Part shown: positions 4,996-62,748 of the stretch, piece after piece | How positions within the stretch are numbered: the first letter of the stretch is position 1 | Layout: the number at the start of each line of letters is the position of its first letter | Assembly (NCBI GenBank): GCA_054600435.1 | Contig: BAAIJX010000010.1 | Coordinates: 186,001-250,000, forward strand | DNA: 64,000 nucleotides | Direction: 5' to 3' | Source: Neophaeotheca triangularis | Lineage: Eukaryota | Notes under the pieces: model-generated | Seen by the model: the letters and a program-made list of their open reading frames with translations, nothing else | Databases searched by the model: none | What the model was told of the DNA's origin: nothing | Program-made: the position numbers and the translations under genes

Positions 4996-6744
4996 ATGGA
5001 GCTCCAGCGCGAACGCCCACCTGCTTACCACTCCCACGACCCTGATACTCTGAAACTCCCCTCAGTACCCTCCCACGATTTCAATACAACTTCGCAGAAC
5101 CAACACGACCTCCGCTTGCCAAATCTACAAACTGTCCTGTCTCCCGATTTCCAACGTGCTGACTCCCCTCCTCAAGATGGCACCCGCTCACCACTCTCAG
5201 TCCGCAGTCTGCCTCGGATGGACCCCGGTGACTCGAACAACGAGGCTAGGAAGAGCATGGATGGTGTTTTAATCAGTCCTTCGGATAATGGCAGCCGAAT
5301 GAGTGGAGAAGAGCGAGGGCTACGATCTGCGAGCGTGTTGTCAATGGATGATCCCGACGTGCGACTGGCGGCAGAGGCACTGTCTGGGCTTGGTAATCCA
5401 GGTGAGCAGTCTATTGAATCCTGACGTAAGAGACACTTGCTGATGTTTGTAGGCATGATGCGGTCTCCGCTGCACAATGGAGGCAGAGATTCCCGTCAAA
5501 CTTCGTCACCTCAAACTGCGCAGGATGAACGCATGGCATACCGCGGCTCACAGGACGGTCAACAGGAAGCAGAGCCGTTGCTCGAACTCTTTACGCAAGC
5601 GCACCCGTGGCTAGGGGGGACCATCAACGGTTCCATGTCTGCATATTCTACGACAAAGTACTACTCCCCTCGACTAGTGCAGTATGGTGTCGGCTTGATG
5701 GAGCGCAACGTTGGCATGCCTATGGTCAACACGGTTGGTAACGTCGGCAAGTACACTGGTGTAGAGAGCGGGTTTAGAAGATATCTTGGTGCTAGAAGGC
5801 CAGGGGACGTTGAACAGGGACTTGGCGGCGCAAGTATAGGAAAGCGACGAAGACTTGCTACAGGAGAAGACGTAGAAGATGAAGTCATGAGCCCATCCAG
5901 GCGAATCAGAGGCGACTCGCAAGGCTCGCAGATAGAAGGCTTACCACCGTGGAGCGCCAGCAAGCCTCCATCATACCGCGAAGAACAAAGTCCTGCAGCA
6001 GTGGACAGGAGACCGCAGAGCAATCGCAGCTGGTCCCGAAACGCTGCTGGTCAGCTTTTCGTCATGACATCGGGGCTCACTGTCGCGCTGAACCAGACAT
6101 CGCGTAGGACGCTTGCTTTGATTCTGCAAATGCTGAGCCAAGCCACTCAGCACATTACGACAGTCATGAACGCTCTCAAAATGGTGCTAGAGCAGTACGA
6201 CGAAGCTCGCAACCACTTCCACGAGAAGCAACACCAGTCAATGGAGAAGGGTGAAAGGCCGCAAACCCCAGACCAAGACGAAGCGGCTCGATACCTCGCC
6301 GCCATCATCAAGAAGCACTCCGACGATATCTGGCACACGATGAAGACTGTCGTCGACCACGTCTCCAACACGGCTGGCGGTGCTTTGCCCGGAAATGCTC
6401 GCCAATTCGTGCGTACGCAGCTCATGTCTCTGCCACAACGATGGCAAGTCGCGTCAAGCACGTCGGACAATCAGACTGCTGGGAACGGCACAGCTACCAG
6501 CGAGACGAGTCGATCTGCTCACAGAATGATTGCTTTTGGTATGGAGGCGCTGGACATGATGAGCCAGGTGTCGCAATGCGTGCAGGCTACTCTCGATTCT
6601 GCCGAGAAATGGCTGGCTTACGGTGGGAGGAGGCGTGTGCCCGATAAGAGTGCCGATGACGAGAGTCATGAACCATACCGGGACAATGTTGATGAGGAGA
6701 TGGGAGAAGCTGGTGCTGTAGAGGACGAGCAGACGCCTACATGA
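4996..6744 (+). CDS. OPI1: Opi1/ccg-8 family transcriptional regulator (exons 4996-5401, 5453-6744)
   Basis: DPDVRLAAEALSGL motif, AYSTTKYYSPRLVQYG, AGGALPGNARQFVRTQLMSLPQRW, TLDSAEKW; GTGAGC...GCTGAT...TAG intron 5402-5452 joins the two ORFs in frame. Confidence 0.85.
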
Positions 6745-19000: not shown

Positions 19001-21526
19001 TAGCTGAGATGTGGCAAAAGGTGACTCAGTCGAGCTGGAACGGTGAGGGACAGCTCGACAAACAGATCTCGCTGTTCTGGTTTCTGCGCCGAGATCAGGA
19101 GGTTGTTCAAGACTTCAAGCAACATTTCCAGCAGTGGCAAGATCTCTTTGTACAAGTGCTCGAATCTACCACCCCCGATACTCCTGAACAGTGATCTTAG
19201 CAGCAGGAAGTAATTGGTCGAATCCTCGGCCGTGATTGAGAGCTCGATGGATTTGGTGATGAGCCTGGTGACGTGCGGCAGTAAGACCTGCTCGTTCTGG
19301 GCGCTAAACAGCGTGACAGCCATGAAGCTGAGCTTGAAGAGCCGAAGCAGAATTGAAGACTTCATAGCATCGGCAGTGCCGACTTCTTCGATCTTGTTCA
19401 TCAGGAATTGCAGCAGCATACCCGCAAAAGCAGGAGAGGTCGCTTCGCTAGCCAGAAGAAACTGTGGTATGTGTAAGAGCGCAGCGTGCTTGAAGCTCTG
19501 CTCATAAAGAAATGGTATCTCCGACTGGAACACTTCGTGAAACGTTGCTGGGTCGAGATGGTGAAAGATCTGTGCGAACGTCTCAAGAAGATCCTTCTCC
19601 TCCTTGCCGCTAGATGCCATGTGCTGGCTTGACAGGAGCTCAGGCGTAGCCTGCGTATCGGGCTTCTCAAGACTGTAGTACTTGAAGACCTGAGCACCCT
19701 CGCGGAAGAGCTTGATGAGAACGTTGACCTCTTCGGCTGTGAAGCCAATTGAAAGGTCTTGCCAATTAAGCGGGACGTTTGCAGGGTCCATCTCCTCTTT
19801 GACGGCGGGAGAATTGGAATTCTTCAACTGGTAGAAGAAGGTTTTGAGGCCATGCAACAGGTTCTTAAACAAGAATTTGTTCTCAGTGACAGGATCCGTT
19901 GCGCGATCGCGAGGGTTCATGCTCTTGATGGGCGTCGCAGAGAAGATGTCGGTCTCATCCCAGTTCGGGGGCTGCTCCTTATCGGCCAGGAAATTTTCAG
20001 GAATAGCATCCACTGAGATGTTCTGCTGTTGTTGCGACAACTTAACAGCGTTGGGGTATTGTCGATTCATCGCAGCAAACTTGTCGGCAATACCGTTGAG
20101 GACAAGCATCATGTAATGACGCGCATCCTGCTTGTTTTCCACCTTCGACATGCATTCGGCCATGTTCAACAGCAGCTTCGCACTCATAGTTTGATAGCTC
20201 GTGCCAGGAAATTCGTCGTGAAGATTGCGAATGTACACCACTATAGTTGCTCGTATCTGCTCTGGGGACAGCAGGTCGCGAACGTGGTGTATAAGATCAG
20301 CGAGCATGGTGTAAGCCAGCGGTCTGAGTCCCTCATACGCGGTGAGGCCGTCGCCGACCAGCGTACGCTCGTCAAGCAGCTCGATAATCTTAGGAAGGAA
20401 GATTTGACGAAAATTGAAGTTGATAATGTGTCTGATGGCCACAAGCAGCTCCTTACGCGTTGCAGATTTCTCCCGTGGACAGTCCTGAAGTAGACGCACG
20501 ACGATACCGGGTAACTCTGAGAGAAAATCATTGAGCAGGTTCTGATGCGCTCTAAGCAGATAGGCCAGAAAGCTCATTGTCTTGACTTGGGCTGTTACCA
20601 GCTCCCCAAAAGCCGCCCGATTCTTGATATCCTTTGCGACACCGGTGAAAATCGTACCAGCGGCTTGTGCCTCCTCATGCGCTCGTTGTTGGGGTCCTGC
20701 CTGGAGCTGTAGCGCCATCTTGATCCGAGGCGTGAACTTGGGCACATTCTTGGGCGCAAGGGTTCGATGAGCCTGGAAGATGGACACGACGATAATGGGA
20801 CATTCAGCGACAACCTTGAAAGATTGCATGCCCCTGACAAGCTGCCTGGTTGTAGGCTGCTCGACACCCGGATCTGTGGTAAGCGAAGAGGTGGTGGAAG
20901 CGACAGGTGAGCTGGGCTTGGGCGAACTGTTCTGCGGTGTCCCTTCGGCCGGTGCTGATCCGTTTTGAGGAGCATCGAACGTATCCTTGACCGTTTGTTC
21001 CGCGCCATCGAACAGCTCAAGGATAAGGTCCAGGAAGGGCTGTGCTCGATCCGAGAGGGTCTTTGTGTGAAAGCGTTCGAAGTCCAATATAATCTTCAGG
21101 CACAGCACTGCATTATCCTCGTTTTCCACCCTGACCAGTTCCAAGCACTTGTCTACGATGGCGAGCGCGTGGGGTTCGGTAGCCTCACCATTGTTCATGG
21201 GCAAACGATGGAGGATCTCGAGCACATTATTCCGGACCCTTTGTTCGGGGGAAGTACTGACGAATACGGGGGGTCCACTGAGGAGATTCAGGAAGATGGG
21301 AACGAACTTGTTGGTGAACTGGGCGTAGAGGGCGCCTTGGGAGAAATGTTCGATGCCATCGCGGACTTCGGTGAGGACTGTAGCCTTGGACTTCGCGTCT
21401 GCGCGAGTAGAGTATTAGTTTCAGTTCTCATATTCGCGGTTCGCTCATGATGTGCCAAAAGGTGTGCTTACCAAGGCTCTGGTCCGACAGCTTGGCCTCG
21501 TAGGCCTCTAGACTTCGCTCTGCCAT
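10021..21526 (-). CDS. TRA1: Transcription-associated protein 1 (TRRAP; PIKK pseudokinase of SAGA/NuA4); exons 21526-21472, 21398-10021
   Basis: ~3800 aa HEAT/FAT/PI3K-like/FATC protein; [34 protein letters not shown], C-terminal LAQTDLLWMPWL; first exon MAERSLEAYEAKLSDQSL, intron GTAAGC...CTAAT...CAG at 21471-21399. Confidence 0.97.
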
Positions 21527-36191: not shown

Positions 36192-37082
36192 CTACTTCTT
36201 TCCCTTCCTTTTCCCACCCTCCTTCCCCTTCTTCTCCTCTTCGACCACAAACCCGCCCTTGACTACAGCATCTCGAGCACACATGTTGATGAACCTAAAG
36301 CGATCGGGTCCCAATTGCACTCCGCCGTACCATCGCGTCACCACAACCATGACATCCCAGACACCCATTAACTCCAGTAAATGCAACATTCGGCCACCAG
36401 CAGCAGTCTCACCGTCGTCATCGCAATCTTGGAACTGCACGCCGTTCGGCCCCCGAATACGCCAGGCAGTCATATTGTGAGTAGCCTTGGCAACCTTCTT
36501 ATCCGAGTTCAAGAGATGCGCAAGATAAGATTTTGCCTGATCCACAGACTCCACAGCAGCAGCACGGGCAACAAAAACGGACTTTTTCTCAGAGATTGGC
36601 TCGGAAATTATCCAAGGCGGCGGGTCGGTCAAGGAATCGAGAGCCTGGTCTTCCGGGTCAATATAATAGCCGTTCGAAAAGTCGATATTGGGGTCTTCCT
36701 GACCACTCGCTTCAGTAGCTTGTTGCCCCTCGTCCCTTGCGCTCTGGTCCAAGCCGAGCTGCTCAAGCTTCTGATTGGTATCTTCGATAAGATCAAAGAT
36801 ACAAGGCTCGCCTGGACGATACACCTCTGCGAGGACGCCGCGAACGGCGTCGACGATTTTGGCACCTTCGCCTTTCGCAATGTCCGCGCCAACATGGTGG
36901 GTTCCGGTTACGCTTGGTGGCGTGTCGGGGTAGTCTGGGCTGAACTCTATGCTCACTGCGACTGTCGGTCGAGAAGGGAGTGTCAGGGCGTATGAGTGAG
37001 AGCCACTGGAGGTCTTCACGAGAGTCTCGTCGCCGTAGATGGAGTTTATGGATGTGACCTCGTCGTCCAGTGCTTCAGACAT
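36192..37082 (-). CDS. YIH1: IMPACT family protein (RWD + UPF0029), Gcn1-binding Gcn2 regulator
   Basis: DEVTSINSIYG, DYPDTPP (RWD); EKKSVFVA, ATHNMTAWR, QDCDDDGETAAGGRML, VVVTRWYGGVQLGPDRFRFI. Confidence 0.93.
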   Translation of the reverse strand: MSEALDDEVTSINSIYGDETLVKTSSGSHSYALTLPSRPTVAVSIEFSPDYPDTPPSVTGTHHVGADIAKGEGAKIVDAVRGVLAEVYRPGEPCIFDLIEDTNQKLEQLGLDQSARDEGQQATEASGQEDPNIDFSNGYYIDPEDQALDSLTDPPPWIISEPISEKKSVFVARAAAVESVDQAKSYLAHLLNSDKKVAKATHNMTAWRIRGPNGVQFQDCDDDGETAAGGRMLHLLELMGVWDVMVVVTRWYGGVQLGPDRFRFINMCARDAVVKGGFVVEEEKKGKEGGKRKGKK

Positions 37083-37264
37083 GATATCGTAAGTTGCCGG
37101 CCATCCAGAAGACTTTTGTCGCTGGAAACGCTCAAAGTCTTCAAAGCATCGCAAGCCACATCTAGCGTGAGCAGAGACGGCTGGGGGAATGGGAATAGAT
37201 ACAGTATCCCCTTCCTTGCTGGGGTTTAGATGTCGAGGTGTAGGAAGAGAAACGAGAAACTCGA

Positions 37265-37285
37265 GTCGCTGTCGCTGTCGCTGTC
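37265..37285. repeat. (GTCGCT)3.5 repeat within the ~340-bp divergent YIH1/PRP45 promoter
   Basis: Read directly from the sequence. Confidence 0.75.
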
Positions 37286-37421
37286 CTTATCTTATCGTTG
37301 CCAAGCCACTATCAAGCGCGAGTCATGTGGAAAGCGCGACCGCGGACCGTCACTTTCTGAGATTCTTCCACTCCTTCAACCTTCGACTTTAGCAACCAAC
37401 ACGATTACGCTCTTCACCGAC

Positions 37422-39221
37422 ATGGCGGCTCGTGTATCAATCGCGAACGCTCTACCGAAGCCGAAATACAACGGCAACGATGATCGCGATTTGTCGCAGC
37501 CCAAACAACAAGCACAGCGAGGCCCGCGCCTGGTCGACTCCCGCCAACTCGAATCTTCGCAACTGGTAGTGAAGCGCTCCGGCCCTCCTCCTTACGGTCA
37601 ACGTGCATCATGGCGTCCACGTAACCCAGAGGACTTTGGTGATGGCGGCGCATTTCCGGAAGTCGCTGTCGCGCAGTACCCGCTGGACATGGGCAAAAAG
37701 GGCGCTTCCTCGAATTCGAATGCGCTGGCGTTACAGGTGGATGGGGAGGGCAAGGTCAAATACGATGCTATCGCCAAGCAAGGTCACGCCGACGGTCGCA
37801 TTGTCCACGCCTCATTCGCCGACCTAATCCCAAAGAGGCAGCAAGCAAATGCAGGCACACTCGACTTGAGCAAGCCCAGTGAGGAAGATATTCAGGCTAC
37901 GAAAGAGAAGACTCAGAAAGCGCTTCAAGGTCTTGTCGACGGTGCACTCGCCGCACAGAAGCCCAAGAATGTCCGTGGCACAACTAGGCCTGAGCCCACC
38001 TTCGTCCGCTACACGCCCTCCGATCAGATGGGCGCCAAGGCAGGCAAAGACCGCATCATGAAGATTATGCAGCGTCAGCAAGATCCCATGGAGCCTCCCA
38101 AGCACAAGATGAAGAAAATCCCCCGCGGCCCTCCATCGCCTCCTCCTCCAGTAATGCACTCGCCTCCCCGCAAACTCACCGCCGAAGATCAAGAAGCTTG
38201 GAAGATCCCTCCACCAGTCTCCAACTGGAAGAACCCCAAAGGATACACGGTGCCACTGGATAAGCGTCTAGCGGCGGATGGCAGGGGCTTGCAGGACGTC
38301 ACCATCAACGACAAATTCGCGCACTTCGCCGAAGCCTTCAATGCCGCCGAAGTGCATGCGCGAGAGGAAGTCACTCAACGCCAGAAAATGCAGCAACGTC
38401 TTGCGGAGAAGGAAAAGGAAGAGAAAGAACAAAACCTGCGCAACTTGGCCATCAAAGCACGCGAAGACCGAGAACGCACACAGCTCGCATCTCACGCCCA
38501 CCGCGAACCACCCCGCCGATCACGGTCGCGCTCATCTTCTGCCGACTCTCGCTCCTCCTATTCCTCACGCTCTCGTTCTCGCTCCGGCTCTCCTGGGGAA
38601 TCCGCGGCCGAAAAGGCCCGCAAAGAACGCGAACGCCAGCGCCAAGAACGCCGTGAAGAAGATAAGCGCGAGCTCCGTCAGAAGAACATGGGCCAAGAGC
38701 GCCGTATGCAGCAAATGGCTCGCACACAGAACCGCGACATCTCGGAAAAGGTCGCCTTGGGTCTCGCCAAACCGACGCAGAGCAAGGAAGCCATGTACGA
38801 CTCGCGACTGTTCGATCGCTCTTCGGGCTTCGCTGCGGGTTTCAATGAGGATCAACCGTACGATAAACCGTTATTCGCGGAGCGTGATGCGCTCAATAGC
38901 ATCTATAGGCCGAACGTGGGGAACGATGATGACGAGGAGGGAGATGGTGGGGAGACTTTGAAAAATATCCAGGGTACTAAGAGGTTCGATACCTTAGGCA
39001 AGGCGCCGAAGCAGGGGTTCAAGGGAACGGAGGCTGTGGAGGAGAGAAGCGGGCCGGTCATGTTCGAGAGGGATAGGGGTGGGAAGCCCACGAAGGAGGA
39101 TGATCCGTTCGGTGTTGATGGTATGATTGCTGAGGCCAGCAAGGGGTCTGGGAAGAGAGGTGCTGACGGCGATGCTGGGAGAAGCAACGGGAAGAGGGCG
39201 AGGGTCGACGATGACGACTAG
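37422..39221 (+). CDS. PRP45: Pre-mRNA splicing factor Prp45/SNW1/SKIP
   Basis: DFGDGGAFPEVAVAQYPLDMG, DPMEPP, PPSPPPPVMHSPPRK, SNWKNPKGYTVPLDKRLAADGRGLQ, RDISEKVALG. Confidence 0.96.
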   Translation: MAARVSIANALPKPKYNGNDDRDLSQPKQQAQRGPRLVDSRQLESSQLVVKRSGPPPYGQRASWRPRNPEDFGDGGAFPEVAVAQYPLDMGKKGASSNSNALALQVDGEGKVKYDAIAKQGHADGRIVHASFADLIPKRQQANAGTLDLSKPSEEDIQATKEKTQKALQGLVDGALAAQKPKNVRGTTRPEPTFVRYTPSDQMGAKAGKDRIMKIMQRQQDPMEPPKHKMKKIPRGPPSPPPPVMHSPPRKLTAEDQEAWKIPPPVSNWKNPKGYTVPLDKRLAADGRGLQDVTINDKFAHFAEAFNAAEVHAREEVTQRQKMQQRLAEKEKEEKEQNLRNLAIKAREDRERTQLASHAHREPPRRSRSRSSSADSRSSYSSRSRSRSGSPGESAAEKARKERERQRQERREEDKRELRQKNMGQERRMQQMARTQNRDISEKVALGLAKPTQSKEAMYDSRLFDRSSGFAAGFNEDQPYDKPLFAERDALNSIYRPNVGNDDDEEGDGGETLKNIQGTKRFDTLGKAPKQGFKGTEAVEERSGPVMFERDRGGKPTKEDDPFGVDGMIAEASKGSGKRGADGDAGRSNGKRARVDDDD

Positions 39222-42750: not shown

Positions 42751-44107
42751 CTAAGAAGAACAAGAAGAAGCAGTCGCCTCCTCCACCGGAACGGCGTTCT
42801 CATCGCCCTCATCTGAAGCCTCGCGCTTCCTCTTGTCGCCAGTACCACCAAAAACTTTGGCGATGGCGGTAGCAGCGGGTGACATTGTCTCACACTCTGC
42901 GACTGTCTCGTCCTCGAAGATGGGAATGTCGTCCCCAGCCAGGACGCTATCCTGCAGAGGCGACGGTTTGGTCTTCTTGCTCTTGGCCTTGGCTGAGCCG
43001 CCGAGGAGGGAAAAGGCTTCCGGCTTCTTGACTGGGGCTTGCTCAACTTCAGGTTGCACGACGATGTGAGAGTCTTTGTTGAGGCCTTCGGAATAGAAGT
43101 GTTCGGTCTCGAGGTCGTTGAGGGCGGCGCGCTCGCCGTCATCCATGGTTTCGACTGCGATTTTCCTGCGGATGAGGTTGGTCTTCTTGGTAATAACAGG
43201 AGCAGACATAGCTGGTGCAGCAAGCACGCCTTCGGTAGTGGTGGTTGCGACAGAAGCACGAGAGGCAGCGACGGCATCGTAACCCTCTGGAGCTACGTTC
43301 TCCTTGCCTTTGTCGCTGCGCTCCCTCTTCCTGCCCTCCTCGTCCGAGCTCAAGTCCAGAGTCAGAGTGCTGTGCTCCATGATGGTCGCGGCTTCCTCTT
43401 CGGGAGAATCTTCGTAGATCTCGAAGAACCAGTTCTTGGGCATGGGTGCCGCGGTAGTGGAAGGCTCGGCCGCCTTGGGAGCAGGTGCCTTGGAGGATAA
43501 GGTACCGCTAAGAGCCGCATCAAGGCTGAAGGGCATGCTGCTGGAGCTGGAGCCAGTGGAGCGGGAGAAGGGAGGGTCAACGCGGGTGTATGGAGCGGAG
43601 ATACGACGGGAAGTCGTGGTCTTGCGTTTCGGAGAGCGTCCTGCGGGTGCTGTCAAGGGAGCACGAGGCGAAGACATATTGGCGCGGGCGGGAGTAGAGA
43701 CGCGAGCAGTGTTGCTGGATGGGGCCATTGGCTTGGACGGAGTGAGGGAAAAGGTGAAGGGCTTGACTGGCGTGTCAAAAGCGCTGAGTTTGTTCTTCTT
43801 GCTGGGAGAGCTGAAGCTAGACGGATCGACATTCTCGCCGTCGAGATCATCAAACGGAGACGGCGAAAAGGCTCGCTTGCCGGTGGTGACGGTCGTCTTG
43901 GAAGCTGAGATGTTGGCTTTGCCACTGCTGCCGAGTGGTGATTTCTGAGAGTTCAGGCCTGCTTGGGTAAGTCATGGGCTTTGATCACGCGTCATATGCT
44001 CGATGGAGCATACCATTCTGCCTGTTCTTCGCGCTGTTCAGGTGCTGCAGACGGGGACCGTCAATGGCACCAAACGGCTGCCTGGCTACTGGGGAAAGAG
44101 TAGCCAT
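42751..44107 (-). CDS. Acm1-like disordered protein with ABBA, KEN and D-box motifs (candidate APC/C-Cdh1 inhibitor); exons 44107-44014, 43958-42751, 433 aa
   Basis: Intron GTATGC...CAG (44013-43959) joins MATLSPVARQPFGAIDGPRLQHLNSAKNRQN to the main ORF; FFEIYEDSPEEE, GKENVAP, RAALNDLETEHF, IPIFED; many S/T-P sites. Confidence 0.8.
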
Positions 44108-44179
44108 TGCGAAAGGAAGTAGAAGAAGATTTCTGGCGAGGCGTGCGGTGGAGGGAAGCTCGACGATAGGCGGGCACTT

Positions 44180-44213
44180 CGCGAAAGGGAGATAGATGCC
44201 CGATTCCACGCGT
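44180..44213. promoter_or_regulatory. SCB-like CGCGAAA (44180) and MCB ACGCGT (44208) elements upstream of the Acm1-like gene
   Basis: Exact motif matches 70-110 bp upstream of the ATG; a second ACGCGT at 43987 lies in the intron. Confidence 0.5.
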
Positions 44214-44872
44214 GGGTGTCGGCGGCGTATGTGTGCCGTCAGTAGTGATGTTCCTAGTGAGTTCTGGTATATGATGATGTCGAGTACTATGTAGTAATGA
44301 GCGTGGTAGGTCTGAAAGACGGGAAGAGAGATGGAGTCGAGTCGAGAGTTGGGCGCGGTCGAGATGCGAGATGCGAAAAAGGAACGGTCGTCTTGGTTTC
44401 GTGTCGTGAACGCGCTGAGCGGAGAGGATTGATACGATGTCGCTGCTCCATTGGAAGTCGCGCTAATGCAAGACGCGGTCGTGCCTGCTTCGTGACTGGG
44501 GCAACGCTTTGACCCTTGCCAATCTCTACTTTTGACTTTGTGCCTACAATGCGTGAGAGTACACATCAGTATCTACATGTAGGTACATTTACACCCCAAA
44601 ATATATGCGGTACAATGAGAATCGCATTCGTATCTACACTCGGGATATACTGCCACTCCCAACTGTACTGAATTCTTATTGTAGTGAACTAGCTATCTGA
44701 TGCTGCCCCTTGGTGCCCACGACTGAACGACGATTCTCGAGCAACAGGAAGAGTCTCTGCTGAAGACGCCTCATCTTCCCAGGTGTCTTCGACATGACCC
44801 CCCTTCGCAAGGGCTACGCTCAGATGTCGCCGTCTCGGCCAACTCGGGCTCGGCTCTCAAAGCGCTCCCGAG

Positions 44873-45915
44873 TCAAACCGCGTCTTGACGAGCGTGAACC
44901 CAGCACCAGCGAGCTCGCCTTCTACCTCCCTCCAATTTAGGCACTACGACCTCGAAAGTCTGCTGAGCGCGCACGCCGAGCAATTTCTTCAGAATCCCTA
45001 GCTCCCGCGAGTCAGAACGCTCCCTGGCTATACGCTCCGTGGGTGTGGACTCCCCGGGGGCCGGGTGGGAAAAGTATCCCTGGGGTCTCCTGCGCGGCAT
45101 GGGCCACAGGGCGGGAGAGCTGAAGAACTTGATGTGGCAGGTCAGCAAAAGCGAGAGCGTGCGCAAGACCTTACAGGTTCTTGACCAGGCGAGTCGCAGA
45201 GCCTGTTGTTGTCCAGGCTTGCCGCTGCCAAAAGAGACGTGCAGTCGGATGTGTCGAATCATCCGCATGTTCTCGGGGTCGATGAATTGGGTGAAAGCTA
45301 ATTACTGCGCGCTTGACCGGTCGATGAGGTTTCAATTGGTGCGGTGACATCTCGTGCCGAGGGAGTAAGGCGAGTGCCTGTCGCAGCTGTAATTGCTGTC
45401 GAATTGGAAAATGAAACTGCCGTAGAAGAGGCGAAATACATAAGATTGTGTTTGCAGAGTGAGCTTCCCTTTCTTACCGTCAAAGAGTTGTCAGTCGTGC
45501 TTGGCTTGTACTTGTGCTTTCATTTCGCGATTCACTCGCAGCAGCCGTGCCGTAAGAGCTCCAACTCAGCGTAGGCACCTTCCTATCCTCGTCCTCAATG
45601 CCCCTGAGCCTGTGTTGATCATGAACACTTCTCGCATCGGGTCGTGCACCGTAACAGCAGCCGAGATGGTACCTCACGACGGCCTCGTGGCGCGGTCCAG
45701 CTGACAAGACTCACCCACTCCTTGCGCTCCAGCTCCAGCTCTGAAGGGGGATAATGCGAAGCTTCGAGCCGTGGCCCGGGCAAACGCACACGACCTGGCT
45801 GTAACAGCCGCCAGAGTAGCAGTGATGCTCGATAAGAATTCCGTAGGCGGACTCTATGCCTAAGAGGAAGGTGCGCTCGCGCAGTTCGATGGGTAGTCTG
45901 AACATGGGTGCTTGC
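44873..45915 (-). pseudogene. Probable decayed gene of the fungal 'LxxLPxELRxxI' F-box-like family
   Basis: Fragments in different frames: MFRLPIELRERTF (45905), ALTARLLRVNREMKAQV (~45560), FTQFIDPENMRMIRHIRLHV (~45290), separated by stops and frame changes. Confidence 0.4.
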
Positions 45916-48594: not shown

Positions 48595-49029
48595 TTTGCG
48601 GTTTAAGACTTGTGGAGAATATTAGTTTCAGAGCGGATGCACAAAGTCTCGAGTCTGTCGTTGAATGTGAGGGTTGTTATTATGTTCGAGAGAAACCTTG
48701 AGGGGCTCCAGCTCGAGAGATAATATCCGCCTCACTAGAACGTATGAGGCTACTTCAGTATGTACCTGTAAGCACGTGTAAGCGATCTCGGAAGTAGGTA
48801 GTGCTAAAAAACTCTCGCTGGGGCCGCCAACGGCTCGGTCACTGCCGAATACCCGGCACATGAGTCAGTGGCAGTCAAGTCAACCACGACTGGAACTCGT
48901 GCAGGTGCCTAACTTCCCTCAGCTGCACTTCATCCCTACCCAAGTCTGCAGTCCTCCAAACACACCACCCGTCGCTACTAAGGTGAGGTATTCGACAAAC
49001 ATCCCTTCGCCCCGACAACCGTACCAAAG

Positions 49030-51597
49030 ATGGCTCCGAAGCGCAAGGCTGGTCCATCAACCGGGCGGGCGAGCAAACGGGTGGCGTCTGGTGTAGGCAC
49101 GCCAGTGAGTAGGAAGTCAGGCACGCCGACCGACAGTGAATATGCCTCAGAAGACCCAGAAGACAGTGCGGATGAAGAGATCGAGAGACAACCGCCGAAA
49201 GCCCAACAGGACTTTGTCGACCGCTACAAAGTCTCCCACTACGCCGATAAGCACCGCCCCTCCCCTCGAGACGACACAGCGAGCGCCCTATTCCGCGCCG
49301 ATCGCGACCTCTCCGGCCTCAAACTCAAAAGTGATCATCATGTGCGGCCGATCTATCTTAATGCCGAAGACGGGCGAGTGGTTCTTGAGACCTTCTCGCC
49401 CAGCTTCAGACAAGCGCAGAATTTCCTTATCAACATTGCTGAACCTCAGAGTAGAACGACAAACATGCACGAGTATACGATTACGCCCCCAAGTCTACTC
49501 GCTGCGGTTTCTGTAGGCCTGACTCCCTCGGACATCATTCGTGACCTGGAGCTTTTCTCGAAGGTTGAGATACCCGAGCACTTGAAGCAGTATATCAAAG
49601 ATCATACGGAGTCCTTTGGTAAAGTGAGATTGGTTTTGAAGCATAATCGGTATTATATCGAGAGCTCGGATCCTGCTGTGCTGCAGATGCTCCTGCGCGA
49701 TCCAGTGATTGGCGCGACTCGGATTGAAGACACAGACTTGGTGACCGAGAAGGCGGCAAAGAAGGGCGGCCTGGTAATTCCTGGAACAAAGGATGCAGCC
49801 GGGTACAAGGAGGCGGAAGCAGCGAGTGAGCAGAAAAAGAAGCGAGACAATAACGACTCGGACGATTCAGACGATGAGTTCGGTGGTAAGGATGCCGAGG
49901 CGGATATGATGGAATACTTGAGGGAAGAGGAAGAGGACGACGAGCTCGATCAAGTCCATTCCTTTGAGATTGACGGCAACGAAATACAGCAGGTACAAGA
50001 GCAGTGTATCAAACTCGAAATGCCTCTCACCGAGGAGTACGATTTCCGAAACGACGAGATCAACGCAAACCTAGACATCGATCTTCGCCCCAACGTGCAA
50101 ATTCGTTATTACCAAGAACATGCTCTCAGTAAGATGTTCGGTAATGGACGCGCCAGATCCGGTATCATTGTATTGCCCTGCGGTGCGGGTAAGACACTTG
50201 TCGGTATCACAGCCGCCTGTACGGTGAAGAAGAGTGCAATCATCCTCTGTACCAGCGCCATGAGTGTGGTTCAATGGAAAGAAGAGTTCAAGAAATGGTC
50301 CAACATCAATCCCCATGATATCGCTATCTTCACATCCGGCGAAAAAGAAAAACTCAACCATAGGGCCGGAGTTATCATCTGCACTTACAGCATGGTTACG
50401 CAGAACACTCGCCGCGCTCACGACTCGAAGCAAGTCATGGACTTCATCACTAGCCGTGAGTGGGGGTTGATGGTGCTAGATGAAGTCCATGTTGTACCGG
50501 CCGAAATGTTTCGACGCGTGACAAGCAAGATTAAAACCCACTCCAAGCTCGGTCTGACAGCCACTCTTCTTCGCGAAGACGACAAGATCAAGGACTTGAA
50601 CTTCCTTATCGGGCCCAAACTCTACGAAGCCAATTGGCTGCAGCTTTCCGAGGAGGGCCACATAGCACGGGTCCAGTGCGCCGAAGTCTGGTGTCCCATG
50701 ACAACCGAATTCTACGGCGAATACCTCAAAGCCAGAACTACCAACAAACGCTCTCTTCTCAGCACAATGAACCCCCGAAAGTTCCAAGCCTGTCAGTTTC
50801 TCATCGACTTCCACGAACGCCGCGGCGACAAAGTCATCGTCTTCAGCGACAACGTTTACGCTCTCAAACGCTACGCCGTCGACCTCAAGAAGCCCTACAT
50901 TTTTGGCGACACGCCCCAACACGAGCGCGAGAAAGTCCTCCAAAACTTCCAAATGAACGACGCAGTCTCGACAGTCTTCCTCTCCAAAATCGGGGACACC
51001 TCCCTCGACCTCCCCGAAGCCACCTGCCTGATACAAGTCTCCAGCCACTACGGTTCCCGACGTCAAGAAGCCCAACGCCTCGGCCGCATCCTCCGAGCCA
51101 AACGCCGCAACGACGAGGGCTTCAACGCCTTCTTCTACTCTCTTGTCTCCAAAGACACCAACGAGATGTTCTACTCAGCAAAACGCCAAGCTTTCCTCGT
51201 CGACCAGGGCTACGCTTTTAAAGTCATCACGCATCTCAACGGTATCGACCGGATGCCAAACTTAGCTCTAGCATCCCAGCAAGAGCGCATGGAACTGCTG
51301 CAGGATGTGCTGCTGCAGTCGGAGACGGCGGGCGATGTCGAGGATATCAAGGATGATTTGTTCAGCGATAGGAGTTTTGCGGCGAAAAGGGGGGCCAAGG
51401 CTAAGAAGGGGGGTGTGAAGCGGCAGGCGGGTACACTTAGCAGCTTGGCTGGAGGCGAGGATATGGCTTATATGGAGTACGCGAAGGGAGGGAGGAACAA
51501 AGAGTTGACGAGTGCTAAGCCGAAGAATGCGTTCTTTAAGAAGGAGGAGAGAGAGAGGGAGAAGAGGCGGAAGGCGGCGAGGGATGGGACATTGTAG
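49030..51597 (+). CDS. SSL2: TFIIH helicase/translocase subunit XPB (Ssl2/Rad25)
   Basis: IAEPQSRT, EEYDFRND, SGIIVLPCGAGKTL, LDEVH, LGLTATLLREDDK, SSHYGSRRQEAQRLGRILRAK. Confidence 0.97.
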   Translation: MAPKRKAGPSTGRASKRVASGVGTPVSRKSGTPTDSEYASEDPEDSADEEIERQPPKAQQDFVDRYKVSHYADKHRPSPRDDTASALFRADRDLSGLKLKSDHHVRPIYLNAEDGRVVLETFSPSFRQAQNFLINIAEPQSRTTNMHEYTITPPSLLAAVSVGLTPSDIIRDLELFSKVEIPEHLKQYIKDHTESFGKVRLVLKHNRYYIESSDPAVLQMLLRDPVIGATRIEDTDLVTEKAAKKGGLVIPGTKDAAGYKEAEAASEQKKKRDNNDSDDSDDEFGGKDAEADMMEYLREEEEDDELDQVHSFEIDGNEIQQVQEQCIKLEMPLTEEYDFRNDEINANLDIDLRPNVQIRYYQEHALSKMFGNGRARSGIIVLPCGAGKTLVGITAACTVKKSAIILCTSAMSVVQWKEEFKKWSNINPHDIAIFTSGEKEKLNHRAGVIICTYSMVTQNTRRAHDSKQVMDFITSREWGLMVLDEVHVVPAEMFRRVTSKIKTHSKLGLTATLLREDDKIKDLNFLIGPKLYEANWLQLSEEGHIARVQCAEVWCPMTTEFYGEYLKARTTNKRSLLSTMNPRKFQACQFLIDFHERRGDKVIVFSDNVYALKRYAVDLKKPYIFGDTPQHEREKVLQNFQMNDAVSTVFLSKIGDTSLDLPEATCLIQVSSHYGSRRQEAQRLGRILRAKRRNDEGFNAFFYSLVSKDTNEMFYSAKRQAFLVDQGYAFKVITHLNGIDRMPNLALASQQERMELLQDVLLQSETAGDVEDIKDDLFSDRSFAAKRGAKAKKGGVKRQAGTLSSLAGGEDMAYMEYAKGGRNKELTSAKPKNAFFKKEEREREKRRKAARDGTL

Positions 51598-52358
51598 GGG
51601 ATTTTGTTATCCACCATGGGGCTGCGGGTGTTGGTATTATCACGCAGCAATTGTACCATTAGTGGGGCTCGATACGTTTAATCTTGCCCCTTGTCCCAAA
51701 GAAGCGTGGTCGGAGGGAGCACACCGTTTGTTTGAGTTGTTCGTCGAGCATGGGAAGACTGTCGTCGATTACCTTAGGTAAAGTACCTTACCTAGGTAGG
51801 TAGGTAGGGGATAGTAGTATTCCAATTCATCGAATCGCTTGCCCTTGGCCTTGGCTGACGTCGTATTGTTTATTGTTCATGTGGGAGGCCCGTTCGGGAA
51901 GGAGGCTGGTCATCGCATGGAAACAGCGAACATGACCCCGCCACGTGCCCCGCCAAAAGATGGAACACGCCGAGGGTCATGAAAGCTTCCTTCCAATTCC
52001 ACTTGCATCCTCCCTTCATGCTCCCTTACCTACTACCTTACCTATACACACCGCTCTTTTACGAACAACGAGACAAGGCTGAAGAAACAGTACCGTACCA
52101 CCTCTGCTAAATACTGTTACACGCGCAAGTAAGCCACACAAGCAACAGCACCTACCTACCTTACCTAGTCACTGCATCGCTGTCATCCTTGTTCGTTCCT
52201 GCATCGACCCTGGCTCCGTCATCTTCACATGCTAATCGTCACGCCGACAGCCCGAGAGCATCAACCTTCAACCACCTCAAACCTCCTCCTTTCTACTCCC
52301 ACCTTACGCGCCTTCTTACCTTCAGGATCAGGTTCATACCAAATCACATTCAGCCAAC

Positions 52359-53436
52359 ATGGCGAACACATCCACCACCCACCACTCACCCTCTGCCGCG
52401 CCTAAGAGGCCAAAAGGTACACACAACCAGTTTCTCCTGCACCACCGACTTGCAACACAACGAAAGCTAAAACCCACCTCACAAGGCATTCTCAAAAACT
52501 CCAACTCTTTTCAAAATGCTCCACCAGAGCCTCACAGCGTCTCACCAACCTCGACAGAGCGGCCACCGCTCACGGCGGTCGAGTCCAGCGACAGCACAAC
52601 CGCCCTTCCAACCACAAAATCCTCCTCTCCGCAAACCAACGCAGCAAACCGCCCGAGCATGCCCTCACGCGAGTTAAGCGAGAAAGAAGTCGTTCAAATG
52701 AACACAAACATCAACGCCGGCCACCGACGCAACAGCTCCAACCCCGGCCGTGGCAGCATCTCCCGCCGTCAGAGCGGTCAATCCAACTCTTCAGACCAAG
52801 CAGCAGACCCCACGACAACTGATCAGCCGCGCCTGAAGTGGGATGAGGCCAACCTGTATCTGAACGAGGGCCAGATGGGCGGCAAGATGAAGATCGATGA
52901 ACCCAAGACGCCTTATGCTAAGCAGTATGATCCTTCAGAGGATGAGGATGAGGTTGCGGCGCTAGATGCTCAAGGCTTGGCTGTGGATGAGTTGGATATG
53001 GCCAAGACTCGGAGTGGGAGCGGCAGTGGAGGGAAGAAGAAGGAGCAGGATATTCCGGACATCGACTTGGGAGAGCCAGAGATGGATGTGGATGTCAAGG
53101 CTGCTGCTGGTGGCGATGGGGAGAGGAGGGTGAATGTTGCAGGTGGTCAGGGTGGAGATGCTATGGATGTCGATGAGGCGGTCAAGGGTAGTGATGAGGC
53201 CGTGCCGGAGACAGAGGGGGGCGCGATGAGTCGCGAGGAGAGAGATAAGCATGCTAAATTCGAGGCTATGCGGAAGAAGCACTACGAGATCAAGAACGTT
53301 AAGGGGCTGCTTGGGTACGTGTCGCCATTTCTGACGTCTAGCAAGCTTTTTGCGGCTGCTAATCTTTATTCTGTACAGACATCCCGAGGAGCTCGAGGCA
53401 ATGGATGATGATGAGGACGAAAGCGGGAAGCGGTAG
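52359..53436 (+). CDS. GLC8: Protein phosphatase 1 inhibitor-2 (Glc8); exons 52359-52416, 52486-53314, 53379-53436
   Basis: KGILKN (SILK), LKWDEANL (RVxF-type), MKIDEPKTPY, FEAMRKKHYE. Confidence 0.88.
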
Positions 53437-59566: not shown

Positions 59567-60636
59567 TCATGGATTGACTGGGATGAAAAGTGAGAATTTT
59601 GGCACACAACTCACGAGGGCTTTGCCGATCTTGGCGCTGGCAGTGCCGCTTACGTCCGATGACCTCTAAATCGTACCTTGAGTGGGTCGTTGTGGCCATG
59701 GGGAGCTTTGACGTTATGGTCTGCGCTCTGCGGACCAGTTTTGAACGACCTTGGAAACATATCTAGGTCGAGCGGGGACCGTACGCCAAAGAGACTGACT
59801 TTCGGTAACCAGGCGATGAGGATCCCACTGCTTCCAGACAAGGAACGAGGGGCATGTAGTAGTCAGAATGACAAGCTTAGGCGTGGAGTAACGAAGAGAC
59901 GACTGGCTAGGGGGAACCCTTGGGTCTATCGATTTGATCGACAAGACGAGATTCGCGCGAACAGGCGATCAGAAGCGGTGGAAGGGATGGGACGTTGAAA
60001 TTTGGAGGACGGGGATAGGTGGAAATGAGCGGGAGTCGGCGTGAACAAGAAGATTGTTTTGGAAAAGTTTCATGAGCGATGTTACTGGGTTGGTGTTTAG
60101 GAATGAGCATTACGGACGGGCGAGGTTTAATGACTTGGACGGCTCGCATCGGAATATGGATGAACGGGGGAAAGGGGTCTGGCTGCTTTGAGCGAACTGC
60201 AGTCGGGATAGAATCTACGTGCCTAGCGCACTTAGTATGGACTTCGAATGCCATTCACATAAGAATCGGAACATGCTGTCAGCCACTTCTAGTATGTCGT
60301 GTTCCGTTCTGTTTCGTATCATTGACTTGATAGGTTATCTTAAAACATCCCCATAGTCCGATGCGTATAGCCCGAGAAGGAGCCGAGGCCTGGGGAACAG
60401 GTCCAAGCCTGAGCTTCCGGATCCTTTCCCCACCAGCTGCGTCGTGCCCCCGCCAAGCTGCCAAACCAAACGTGGAGCTCCCAGTCCAGATCGCATCGTC
60501 TCGACGTCGTCTCGTCTCCACCGCTCCGACCATACTTCTACCCCCACCTGTACTTGTTCAACTACAACAACCTACCTGATCGCCGCCAATCAAAGAAACA
60601 GTCTAGTCGCGCAGTGCCATCCTCTCGATCTCCAAC

Positions 60637-62748
60637 ATGGTCCGCAAGCCCGCATCTCTAGTCCGAACAGCCTCCCACCCTAACGAAAGGCAAGCTATGT
60701 TCAATCCCAACGCGGCCAACGCGATAGCTGCCTCGTCGCAAGACACCGGCGATCTGCACAAAGATCAGGAGGTCAGACCAGACGCGAATGAGGGTCTTGT
60801 GGAAGAAGAGGAAGGAGAAGAAGCGCTTCACCACGTACCCTCGGACGATCGCAAGCCTATTTGGGCCGCACGGAACGAGCTGACGGAGCGATGCTTTTGG
60901 AAGACGATCGATGAACTTCCCACTACAAAAGAAAGACCATGGCAGCAGCGACTAGCTCAAGGTGCAGGGAAGATGGACGATTCCCAGGCTCCAGGCAGGC
61001 GTTGGAACGCCAATGACTCCGAGTTCTCTTACCTCAATGGTGCTCAAGCCGACCTTTGTGTCAAGAGGGATGCTCTGGCCGAAGTCCTCAAGCACCATGC
61101 TTGCGAGTTGCTCTATGATCCTGGCACCGATTCCGCCAAGGGCGAACCGATTTTGGCTAAGAGGATCATCGACTACACTCACGAGGAGAGGAAGCTCTTG
61201 AGGAGATGTTACAAAAGCCACCACAAATGTATCGATAGGCTTGCGGCTCGTCAGAAGAGCGCGAGGAAAGCCGAAGAGCAGGAAACCCTTCGGTTCCCGC
61301 AAGCAACGAGCAGCAATGCGCGCAAGTACGCGAAGCCGTTTTGCGATTTCCTCACGGAGAACCCGACCGTGTTCCACGCTGTTTCTGCGTTGAAGGAGCA
61401 GATGCAGGAAGCTGGCTGGACGGAGCTGAGCGAGCGGGACGATTGGAAGATTGATCCGAGTGGACGTTACTTTGTGGAACGCAATGGCTCGTCGCTCGTG
61501 TCTTTTGTGGTCGGCGCGGAGTACAAGCCCGGGAATGGTGCTGCTATTATTGCAGGTCACATTGACGCTCTGACCGCGAAGTTGAAGCCCGTATCGAAGG
61601 TCCCGAACAAAGCAGGTTATCTCCAACTCGGCGTCGCCCCCTACGCAGGCGGTATGGGCAACACTTGGTGGGATCGCGACCTGGGTATAGCAGGTCGCGT
61701 CCTCGTGAAGGAAGGTGGTAAGATCGTGACGAAGCTAGTCAACCTCAATTGGCCCATTGCACGCATACCAACGCTGGCTCCTCACTTTGGAGCCGCCGCT
61801 CAGGGTCCCTTCAACCAAGAGACTCAGATGACTCCGATCATTGGCCTTGACGACGACCCCAGCCACGACGAGCACAGCACCACTGCTCAAGAATTTGCCA
61901 AACCCAGCTCCTCCGACTGTTACGTCTTCACAAACACCCAACCGCCCGCACTTGTCAATGCCATCGCTTCTCAACTCGACCTCCCCGCCTCTGAGCACTC
62001 CAAAATCCTTAACTGGGAGCTCGAGCTTTACGACGTCCAACCGGCAACGCTCGGCGGTCTGAACCGTGAATTCATTTATGCCGGCCGCATAGACGACAAG
62101 CTCTGCAGTTGGGCAGCTCAACAAGCGCTTCTCGAAAGCAGCGCGCACGACACAAGCCACAGCAGCCTAATTAAAACCGTCGCCCTATTCGACGACGAAG
62201 AAATCGGCTCACAGCTCCGGCAAGGCGCTCGGGGCAACCTCCTCTCCAGCGTGCTCGAACGCGCAGTCGGCTCTCTCGCCAACACTTCCAACGCGGCCAG
62301 CACTCCGGTTCCCTCCGACCAATTCGGCCGCTTCTACGCCAATTCTTTCCTCGTCTCCGCCGACGTCACGCATGCTGTCAACCCCAACTTTCTCCCCGCC
62401 TACCTCCCCAACCACTCCCCCCACCTCAACACCGGCCTCGTCGTCAGCGCCGACAGCAACGGCCACATGACCACCGACGCCGTTTCCACCACTATTCTGC
62501 AACGCTGCGCCGAAACTGTCGGCGCGAAATTGCAAGTCTTCCAGATCCGCAATGACAGTCGATCTGGCGGAACGGTTGGACCTATGCTTTCGAGCGCGCT
62601 GGGTGTGAGGGCTGTCGATGCTGGCTTGCCGCAATTGAGTATGCATTCCATTCGCGCGACTACGGGGAGTTTGGATCCCGGGTTGGGGGTGCTCGCTTTT
62701 GTGGGGTTTTTGAGTGGGTTTGAGGGGGTGGATGCGGAGATGAGGTAG
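60637..62748 (+). CDS. M18 family aminopeptidase (Ape1/Lap4-like) with long N-terminal extension
   Basis: NPTVFHAV, GHIDAL, WWDRDLG, IPTLAPHFG, GRIDDK, FDDEEIGS, SADVTHA, SRSGGTVGP, LSMHSIR. Confidence 0.92.
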   Translation: MVRKPASLVRTASHPNERQAMFNPNAANAIAASSQDTGDLHKDQEVRPDANEGLVEEEEGEEALHHVPSDDRKPIWAARNELTERCFWKTIDELPTTKERPWQQRLAQGAGKMDDSQAPGRRWNANDSEFSYLNGAQADLCVKRDALAEVLKHHACELLYDPGTDSAKGEPILAKRIIDYTHEERKLLRRCYKSHHKCIDRLAARQKSARKAEEQETLRFPQATSSNARKYAKPFCDFLTENPTVFHAVSALKEQMQEAGWTELSERDDWKIDPSGRYFVERNGSSLVSFVVGAEYKPGNGAAIIAGHIDALTAKLKPVSKVPNKAGYLQLGVAPYAGGMGNTWWDRDLGIAGRVLVKEGGKIVTKLVNLNWPIARIPTLAPHFGAAAQGPFNQETQMTPIIGLDDDPSHDEHSTTAQEFAKPSSSDCYVFTNTQPPALVNAIASQLDLPASEHSKILNWELELYDVQPATLGGLNREFIYAGRIDDKLCSWAAQQALLESSAHDTSHSSLIKTVALFDDEEIGSQLRQGARGNLLSSVLERAVGSLANTSNAASTPVPSDQFGRFYANSFLVSADVTHAVNPNFLPAYLPNHSPHLNTGLVVSADSNGHMTTDAVSTTILQRCAETVGAKLQVFQIRNDSRSGGTVGPMLSSALGVRAVDAGLPQLSMHSIRATTGSLDPGLGVLAFVGFLSGFEGVDAEMR

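Follow-up and report, generated by a model that had tools for sequence, protein, structure and literature searches.

A Pezizomycotina protein family with conserved ABBA, KEN and D-box motifs is a candidate Acm1-like regulator of the APC/C

Introduction

How is the APC/C (anaphase-promoting complex or cyclosome) with its coactivator Cdh1 shut off from G1/S to mitosis in filamentous ascomycetes? This is poorly understood in a group which includes major crop and human pathogens as well as industrial moulds. The question is raised by a gene within a 64,000 nucleotide (nt) stretch of the Neophaeotheca triangularis genome (assembly GCA_054600435.1, contig BAAIJX010000010.1, positions 186,001 to 250,000; here referred to as the window). 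The gene consists of two exons on the minus strand with a coding span of 42751-44107 and encodes a protein of 433 amino acids. In a preliminary description, made from the letters of the window, this protein had been taken for an ortholog or analog of the APC/C pseudosubstrate inhibitor Acm1. According to Paolillo et al. (2018), A. nidulans has no obvious homolog of Acm1, Emi1 or Rca1, which leaves the niche of such an inhibitor open. In the literature on Acm1 and Cdh1 in filamentous fungi we found no description of a protein of this kind. The family to which the protein belongs is a concrete candidate.

Conservation of the ABBA, KEN and D-box motifs

The analysis was based on an alignment of 413 distinct proteins with a length of 300 residues or more, taken from a set of 448; the others were shorter or were two exon translations. 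At the median alignment position the commonest residue was present in 38% of the sequences. Against this background 20 positions were at least 97% identical, namely P77, K85, G138, S140, P141, S176, A180, W208, F210, I212, L232, D233, S235, D237, K250, E251, N252, P255, R308 and L311. Nine of these 20 positions define an ABBA motif (W208, F210, I212), a KENxxP box (K250, E251, N252, P255) and a destruction box (D-box; R308, L311).

The ABBA motif with its preceding Trp spans W208-D215 (WFFEIYED, 43408-43431; all features of the gene are on the minus strand) and lies in the segment FFEIYED..MEH (residues 209-227, 43372-43428). It agrees with the ABBA consensus of Di Fiore et al. (2016), Fx[ILV][FHY]x[DE]. 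F210 was found in all 413 members and I212 in 409 of them, while position 213 was occupied by H (305), Y (105) or F (1) and position 215 by D (400) or E (13). Judged from the alignment, this alternation of H/Y/F and D/E is the exact degeneracy of the published consensus.

In the KEN box GKENxxP (G249-P255, GKENVAP in N. triangularis, 43288-43308), K250, E251, N252 and P255 were each present in 412/412 sequences. The D-box of N. triangularis is RAALNDLETEHF (residues 308-319, 43096-43131). Its core RxxLxx[LM] (R308-T316) is extended by [FY][YI]xEG, and the extended motif covers 43084-43131. R308 and L311 were each conserved in 412/413 members. The variable positions of the motif were P3 (P 315, A 90), P5 (G 174, S 123, A 67), P6 (E 207, D 149) and P7 (L 233, M 171, V 6), the latter being position 314 with L, M or V in 410/413 members. 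At P9 the family carries A, T or V and not the preferred N. The preferences explained by the Acm1-Cdh1 structure are a small residue at P3, G at P5, an acidic one (D or E) at P6 and an aliphatic one at P7 (He et al. 2013). By comparison, the D-box of the family agrees with what has been published for P1 and P3-P7.

The order ABBA, KEN, D-box was the same in 407/413 members and corresponds to the order within the central inhibitory region of Acm1, as the preliminary description had noted for the single protein. The distance from the ABBA Phe to the KEN box was 38-47 residues (407 sequences) and that from the KEN box to the D-box 14-75 residues. All motifs listed in that description were recovered at their positions, and the conservation above background in relatives, which it had named as a check, was found (409-413 of 413 members at the motif residues versus 38% at the median position). 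The joint presence of the three motifs is therefore far beyond chance. It represents a clean case of a motif cassette that is conserved while the remaining sequence drifts.

Gene structure and extent of the family

The gene starts with an ATG at 44107-44105. Exon 1 (94 nt, 44014-44107) encodes residues 1-31 and the first base of codon 32. It is followed by a phase 1 intron of 55 nt with GT..AG borders (43959-44013), which is required for the product of 433 amino acids, and by exon 2 (1208 nt, 42751-43958) with residues 32-433 and a TAG stop codon. The spliced gene model proposed earlier was borne out, since its product matched an NCBI record (P0003, 'hypothetical protein MBLNU230_g0507t1 [Neophaeotheca triangularis]') at 100% identity and coverage. 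It follows that the gene is already annotated, though without a function, and the former term 'unannotated' was incorrect; many of its relatives are misnamed 'Thymidylate kinase'. The protein contains 13 S/T-P sites, five of which conform to [ST]Px[KR], and the sites for cyclin-dependent kinases (CDK) which had been reported are thus present.

Five metatranscriptome contigs of 151-333 nt from four runs matched the coding sequence and the stretch 44136-44365. None of the five spanned the intron at 43959-44013. Contigs from two of the runs were identical to 44136-44365, i.e. to the region 29-258 nt upstream of the ATG. This stretch could be either a long 5' untranslated region (UTR), which would take in the ACGCGT at 44208-44213 discussed below, or the 3' UTR of an upstream gene on the same strand (open reading frame (ORF) 44876-45301).

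A word-based protein search yielded 303 relatives. With a profile of 18 Dothideomycete members 590 clusters were obtained at E <= 0.001, 262 of them at E <= 1e-30; the library searched consisted of representatives at 50% identity and the best 150 of the 590 clusters were listed. Named members belonged to six classes of the Pezizomycotina: Dothideo-, Sordario-, Eurotio-, Lecanoro-, Lichino- and Arthoniomycetes. Those of the Dothideomycetes came from the Capnodiales/Mycosphaerellales, Dothideales, Myriangiales, Pleosporales and Botryosphaeriales and those of the Eurotiomycetes from the Onygenales and Chaetothyriales. Among the matches listed, which are the best 150 of 590 clusters without the weak tail, no member was found outside the Pezizomycotina. 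The family looks single-copy.

A search against Pfam gave nothing above threshold for the protein of 433 amino acids or for 20 relatives, and the matches below threshold were noise alone. The name 'Thymidylate kinase' is attached to very many UniRef and some NCBI records of the family (e.g. P0250, P0289, P0305, P0347 and P0437). An identity as thymidylate kinase was rejected, as none of these 20 members and none of six further members, one of them bearing the name, had a Pfam match above threshold. The name looks like a propagated annotation error, and as a by-product of this study it can be noted that it sits without support on hundreds of database records.

In about a quarter of the gene models the first exon was missing or the N-terminus was different, with a gap at R9 in 109/413 sequences (e.g. 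P0119 and P0122). In all 45 orthologous metagenome loci with a readable N-terminus exon 1 ended directly after KNRQN, so that the position of the intron is conserved. The first exon of the family genes is probably often mis-called.

Further conserved modules and predicted structure

Besides the three motifs several other modules were conserved. The N-terminal module R9-N31 (44015-44083) is composed of a D-box-like motif RxPFxx[LVI] and a predicted helix RLQxLxSxKNRQN. In N. triangularis the motif reads RQPFGAI (residues 9-15, 44063-44083), and in about 305 members with the exon modelled R9 was present in 287, P11 in 298 and F12 in 293. A second N-terminal motif, [DN]xENxxP (D71-P77, 43822-43842), showed E73 in 399/399, N74 in 395/400 and P77 in 402/402 sequences, with D or N at position 71 in 395/399. 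The KEN receptor is also bound by the NEN motif of Acm1 and the GxENxP motif of Xkid, with a preference for D or N at position -1 (He et al. 2013). By its sequence [DN]xENxxP fits these degenerate KEN-type motifs.

Two modules are located between these N-terminal motifs and the ABBA motif. The first, SP[RK].P..APAGRSPxRK (S128-K144, 43621-43671), contains a conserved full-consensus CDK site at S140. Here G138 was found in 401, S140 in 404 and P141 in 401 of 412 sequences, and R143 in 318. The second (R149-T184, 43501-43608) comprises RR...P[FY][TS]R[VI]DPPF and PFS[LI]DAALxGT and is without known partner. It showed R157 in 400/408 sequences, P160 in 395, S176 in 411/412 and A180 in 408, while the [FYW][ST]R part was present in 211/413 members. 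In the Chaetomiaceae members P0427 and P0437 the P[FY][TS] part (aligned to 152-156) was lost, and hence this part is dispensable in the Chaetomiaceae.

The ABBA motif is directly followed by the module P217-E239 (43336-43404), which consists of a predicted alpha helix (217-231) and an acidic stretch LD[IL]SSD[ED]E. In the latter L232 and D233 were each conserved in 411, S235 in 405 and D237 in 408 of 413 members. The sequence [TVI]LD[IL]SSD[ED]E (residues 230-239, 43336-43365), with its hydrophobic core followed by Ser and acidic residues, resembles a phospho-regulated SUMO-interaction motif. Close to the C-terminus an ABBA-like motif [FI]x[LVI][WFY]E[DS] was present (IPIFED in N. triangularis, residues 376-381, 42910-42927). 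Position 379 was W in 337, F in 35 and Y in 7 of 401 sequences, E380 was found in 382/408 and position 381 was S in 261 and D in 132. Since W and S are not covered by the ABBA consensus, the agreement of this motif with it is partial. In the Dothideomycetes a Lys-rich stretch was located 10-25 residues ahead of the C-terminal hydrophobic motif.

A structure predicted with AlphaFold2 from a cross-class alignment of 20 sequences was mostly disordered (mean predicted local distance difference test (pLDDT) 48, predicted template modelling score 0.20). Four short helices were predicted at 17-26, 177-181, 217-231 and 316-319. The helix 217-231 had a pLDDT of about 75 and started two residues past the ABBA motif. 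Acm1 likewise has a helix that adjoins its A motif (61-70) directly, extends up to residue 80 and packs on blade 3 of Cdh1 (He et al. 2013). The helix expected after the ABBA motif by analogy with Acm1 was thus predicted.

Promoter elements

ACGCGT is the element of the MluI cell-cycle box (MCB) type through which the factor MBF acts at G1/S in yeasts. In N. triangularis one ACGCGT was located at 44208-44213, 101-106 nt upstream of the ATG, and a second one inside the intron (43987-43992). The window as a whole had no excess of ACGCGT, with 8 sites compared to 13.96 +/- 3.75 in shuffled sequences; two of these 8 sites lie within 226 nt at the 5' end of the gene.

Orthologous promoters were collected from metagenomes. 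Scanning with the family alignment gave 256 matching stretches; 138 of them were confirmed and 80 loci kept. The match started by residue 12 in 68 of these loci, and 45 had a readable ATG and RxPF N-terminus. Including the window, at least 300 nt of upstream sequence were available for 39 loci, and 33 were left after removal of loci sharing more than half of their 12-mers. Being related among themselves, these 33 loci do not represent independent events.

In the 500 nt upstream of the 33 loci ACGCGT occurred 36 times. This corresponds to 2.18 sites per kb versus 0.13 in the coding sequence, 0.15 in the region -1500 to -700 and 0.06 downstream, and is about 6-fold more than in dinucleotide-preserving shuffles (5.8 +/- 2.4, with a maximum of 14 in 300 shuffles). 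The half-sites ACGCG/CGCGT were enriched as well (136 versus 48.5 +/- 6.9 in shuffles), and the control hexamers GCGCGC and CCGCGG showed no enrichment in the orthologous promoters. Another seven ACGCGT sites (0.85 per kb) were located in the first 250 nt past the ATG. At least one site within -500 to +250 was found in 22 of the 33 loci; the 11 loci without a site belong to a few related groups. By analogy with the yeasts we infer that ACGCGT is used as a G1/S element in these fungi as well.

The preliminary description had also named CGCGAAA, which is indeed present at 44180-44186, 73 nt upstream of the ATG. In the orthologs this sequence was not enriched (5 in 16.5 kb upstream versus 5 in 20.1 kb far upstream), and it was rejected as a promoter element.

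Two further observations were made in this promoter set. TCGCGA was denser in the 500 nt upstream (0.85 per kb) than in the coding sequence or the flanks (0.19-0.44 per kb) of the 33 loci. Three loci of low GC content (L081, L093 and L097) were devoid of CGCG, and their lineage may therefore have a different G1/S element.

Comparison with known APC/C pseudosubstrates

Family members and Acm1 are both disordered and share an N-terminal D-box-type motif, an A or ABBA motif with a directly adjoining helix, a degenerate xEN motif, a KENxxP box and a D-box. In both cases P9 of the D-box is non-consensus, being A/T/V in the family and V in the pseudosubstrate D-box of Acm1 (He et al. 2013). Many CDK-type sites are present in both, and G1/S expression, which for the family is suggested indirectly by the promoters, is likely to be a further common feature.

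There are also differences. Acm1 is a protein of 209 amino acids compared to 433 here. The xEN motif of the family is located far N-terminally, whereas the NEN motif of Acm1 lies between the A motif and the KEN box, in the order A-helix-NEN-KEN-DB3 (He et al. 2013). The linker between KEN and D-box (14-75 residues) is longer in the family and variable, and the family carries an additional ABBA-like motif at the C-terminus. The expectation of an Acm1-like size and make-up thus failed, as the protein is twice as long, has extra conserved modules and contains a KEN box without CDK site. Of the two terms 'ortholog or analog' the first is left without support, because homology to Acm1 was not detectable by the profile searches described below, while analog is plausible.

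The arrangement also recalls the ABBA-KEN-ABBA cassette of Mad3/BubR1. Here too a KEN box is placed between ABBA-type motifs with a D-box nearby, the spacing of the first ABBA motif to KEN is constrained and the conservation is extreme and long-term. The BubR1 cassette has a constrained spacing and is thought to engage two coactivator molecules (Di Fiore et al. 2016). The family differs from Mad3/BubR1 in that it has no TPR, Mad3_BUB1 domain, GLEBS motif or any Pfam match. In addition, its second ABBA-like motif carries the W/S residues outside the consensus and is located about 130 residues past KEN. A third case is Mes1, a meiotic APC/C inhibitor of S. pombe with pseudosubstrate KEN and D boxes arranged like those of Acm1 (He et al. 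2013). Mes1, which was compared by its description alone, is also a disordered protein with KEN and D boxes; it differs in being small and genus-restricted, and in He et al. (2013) no ABBA motif is reported for it.

Proposed function

With good confidence, the sequence data point to a protein which is a genuine ligand of an APC/C coactivator. What it does to this coactivator is a more tentative matter. Tentatively we favour a convergent, Acm1-like pseudosubstrate regulator of the APC/C, probably of APC/C-Cdh1, which would be expressed at G1/S and removed via its N-terminal degrons. On this reading it would function like Acm1, to which a relationship is not demonstrable.

The proposed mechanism would run as follows. 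The protein, which is predicted to be disordered, would be nuclear and CDK-regulated, and its main job would be the binding of an APC/C coactivator, most likely Cdh1. Transcription at G1/S would be driven by the MCB elements, as suggested by the conserved enrichment of ACGCGT. The protein would then build up and be phosphorylated at its conserved S/T-P sites. It may clamp the WD40 domain of one coactivator at all three known docking sites, with the ABBA motif and helix in the groove of blades 2 and 3, KENxxP on the top face and RxxLxx[LM] in the groove of blades 1 and 7, and real substrates would be shut out by this pseudosubstrate inhibition. Another coactivator molecule may be bound by the ABBA-like motif at the C-terminus. 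The N-terminal D-box-like motif and [DN]xENxxP could serve the destruction of the protein itself in mitosis, which would free the coactivator.

In its most far-reaching and somewhat more doubtful form the proposal is that the family represents the 'missing' stoichiometric APC/C-Cdh1 inhibitor of filamentous ascomycetes. Such an inhibitor would be convergent and MBF-driven, would combine an ABBA-helix-KEN-D-box clamp with a BubR1-like second ABBA site and its own degenerate N-terminal degrons, and might be linked by the modules at 128-184 to a further partner, possibly separase or cohesin. Acm1 and the Clb5 ABBA motifs are known only from the Saccharomycetales (Di Fiore et al. 2016). If the proposal is true, the range of this motif class in fungi would be extended beyond the Saccharomycetales and the MadBub proteins.

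Several points weigh against an Acm1-like inhibitor. A crystal structure of Acm1 with the Cdh1 WD40 domain exists (He et al. 2013), but no Acm1 chain was found among the PDB sequences at E <= 10, either with a profile of the whole family (1 match) or with one of the ABBA-KEN-D-box region (4 matches). All of the matches obtained were spurious (complex I 24-kD subunit, ubiquitin and a ribosomal protein). Acm1 has a CDK site within its KEN box (KENxxSP, S102-P103), whereas the family has none (position 254 is P in 357 and A in 53 sequences). The invariant modules at 128-184 and 232-239 have no counterpart in Acm1, which suggests a further partner. The N-terminal 'D-box' deviates from the consensus by F instead of L at P4 and by P instead of D/E at P6. 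In A. nidulans the deletion of pucA is lethal, which was read to mean that no other sufficient inactivation of CdhA exists (Paolillo et al. 2018). Cyclin A and Clb5 are examples of plain substrates that also combine an ABBA motif with a KEN box or D-box (Di Fiore et al. 2016). Finally, the nearest named clusters by language-model features (score 0.78) carry Pfam Securin, although this is a lead only.

Alternative explanations

The main rival, and the one that matters, is securin. If the family were the Pezizomycotina securin, its N-terminal degrons would direct destruction by APC/C-Cdc20 at anaphase, the acidic patch [DE]-I-[HY]-E-D-[TS]-P would open a long separase-interacting segment and occupy the active site of separase as a pseudosubstrate, and the ABBA, KEN and D-box motifs inside the protein would act as additional degrons that are perhaps accessible only when securin is free. 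We consider this unlikely. The securins known as PTTG1 in human, Pds1 in S. cerevisiae and Cut2 in S. pombe and that of Chaetomium (C. thermophilum and C. globosum) are disordered as well, carry APC/C degrons and an acidic patch with a nearly invariant Glu, are each conserved within one clade and fall into a similar size range. A Pezizomycotina securin family with C. globosum XP_001225358.1 as named member has been published, and the securin of C. thermophilum is referred to as 'experimentally probed', citing Lin et al. 2016 (both according to Cromer et al. 2019). For the published members, compared here by their description only, Cromer et al. (2019) describe KEN and D boxes together with a conserved patch whose Glu is invariant or nearly so. 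The present family, which is disordered, without domain and Pezizomycotina-wide, matches this with its N-terminal D-box-like motif and an acidic patch with E214 in 387/413 members and [HYF]E[DE][TS]P, an ExxP, in 320/413. The patch 7-mer shares residues 1, 2 and the last one with the human pseudosubstrate EIEKFFP (Rosen et al. 2019), a loose resemblance. In the best named Atlas cluster by language-model features PF04856 Securin was assigned to 55% of 69 members; the tool warns that the family is probably wrong, with 5 of the 10 best named matches sharing a family. G1/S expression would also be expected of securin genes. On the other hand, the patch fits the ABBA consensus better than the acidic-Ile-Glu start of a pseudosubstrate. 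At the place of the substrate-like Glu H or Y is present in 410/413 members (P4, when P6 and P5 are assigned to the acidic residue and Ile; the alternative register would put Ile at P6), and the invariant patch residues are the ABBA positions, while P217 is variable (P 332, A 32, E 28) and neither E214 nor P217 is present in members from the Onygenales. An LPE-type motif, which follows the securin pseudosubstrate after 11-14 residues and is conserved only in some lower eukaryotes (Rosen et al. 2019), has its equivalent [LVI]PE 8-20 residues downstream of the patch in just 1/413 members. The true KEN box and the best D-box are C-terminal to the patch, in a part that would be wrapped on separase, whereas in securins they are N-terminal (Cromer et al. 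2019); N-terminal to the patch the family has just the D-box-like motif with F at P4 and [DN]xENxxP. None of 20 members matched Pfam Securin PF04856 at E <= 10, the PDB searches with both profiles (whole family and ABBA-KEN-D-box region) returned no securin chain, and a separate Ascomycota cluster does carry PF04856, which means that a different securin-like family exists in the phylum. A family member from Chaetomium exists (P0427) under an accession other than that of the published securin. C. globosum CBS 148.51 was absent among 120 listed matches, and three cluster look-ups gave accessions other than the published ones. Unless the published securin accession proves to be a member, the sequences point to a new family-level variant of a known regulator type. 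If the family is securin after all, the ABBA, KEN and D-box motifs in its separase-binding half would indicate that free securin is linked to the APC/C in a way so far unrecognised.

The protein could also be an ordinary, though unusually well-marked, APC/C substrate, in which ABBA, KEN and D-box merely time its destruction while the modules at 128-184 serve another main function in S/M phase, possibly that of a Sororin-type cohesin regulator. We regard this as rather doubtful. It is favoured by the modules at 128-184 (and 232-239), which are as conserved as the degrons, but the near-absolute invariance, fixed order and spacing of the three motifs across six classes exceed what is usual for substrate degrons, and short motifs as a rule do not persist (Di Fiore et al. 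2016). As to Sororin, the vertebrate protein is targeted by APC/C-Cdh1 through its KEN box and uses [KR][TS]YSR[KL] to bind PDS5 (Prusen Mota et al. 2024). The family resembles Sororin and S. pombe Sor1 in its KEN box, its CDK sites, a possible [FY][ST]R motif and, in some members (those of the Dothideomycetes), the Lys-rich stretch before the C-terminal hydrophobic motif; [FYW][ST]R, which recalls the PDS5-interaction motif, was present in 211/413 members. A weak match of a Sororin hidden Markov model (E 0.089) to an uncharacterised Pezizomycotina-wide family (XP_001941430.1) has been mentioned by Prusen Mota et al. (2024). The longer form [FYW][ST]R[VIL][DNE]P was also found in 211/413 members overall, but the [FY][TS]R motif was absent from the Chaetomiaceae. 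FGF occurred in only 4/413 members, and the core of the Sororin domain, F..[VILA][DE].[FY], in the last 80 residues of only 1/413; in Sor1 this core is formed by F299, V302, D303 and Y305 (Prusen Mota et al. 2024). Pfam Sororin gave no match. Sororin identity was mostly rejected on such motif counts. That all motifs are chance matches in low-complexity sequence, without a role in the cell cycle, is extremely improbable. Short motifs do arise easily in disordered sequence rich in Ser, Pro and Ala, and the window has no excess of ACGCGT; yet chance accounts neither for motif residues that are invariant in 409-413 of 413 members, as opposed to 38% at the median position, nor for an ACGCGT count in ortholog promoters above that of all 300 shuffles.

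Genomic neighbourhood and additional observations

No cell-cycle gene cluster was found around the gene within the 64-kb window, and none of 16 large ORFs of the window encoded a WD40 coactivator or separase. Its neighbours are housekeeping genes, namely those of a PDR-type ABC transporter, Opi1, Tra1, an RWD/UPF0029 protein, SKIP/SNW, the XPB/Rad25 helicase, PP1 inhibitor-2 and aminopeptidase I (179-3583, 5425-6744, 10021-21414, 36192-37286, 37230-39221, 48982-51597, 52236-53408 and 60607-62748).

Genome contigs were scanned for the Cdh1 WD40 domain with a short motif. The motif had no match in viral contigs or in 402 kb of orthologous loci. In the genome contigs 46 loci were obtained, 43 of which were bacterial or chance matches, and three were intron-split eukaryotic Cdh1-like exons (44-61 amino acids). 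These three loci (L037, L043 and L045) come from metagenome-assembled genomes (MAGs) labelled Desulfosporosinus, Rickettsiales and Gammaproteobacteria and contain exons of a eukaryotic Cdh1/Fizzy-related WD40 protein. They look like eukaryotic contamination of bacterial bins.

A bacterial protein family of about 800-880 amino acids (loci L003-L044; mostly MAGs of Bacteroidota, Gemmatimonadota and Acidobacteriota) contained the octapeptide of the Cdh1 motif within ...FGFSKT.DETLRFWN.... This match is a chance convergence, which would swamp scans with the Cdh1 motif. [quoted passage not shown]

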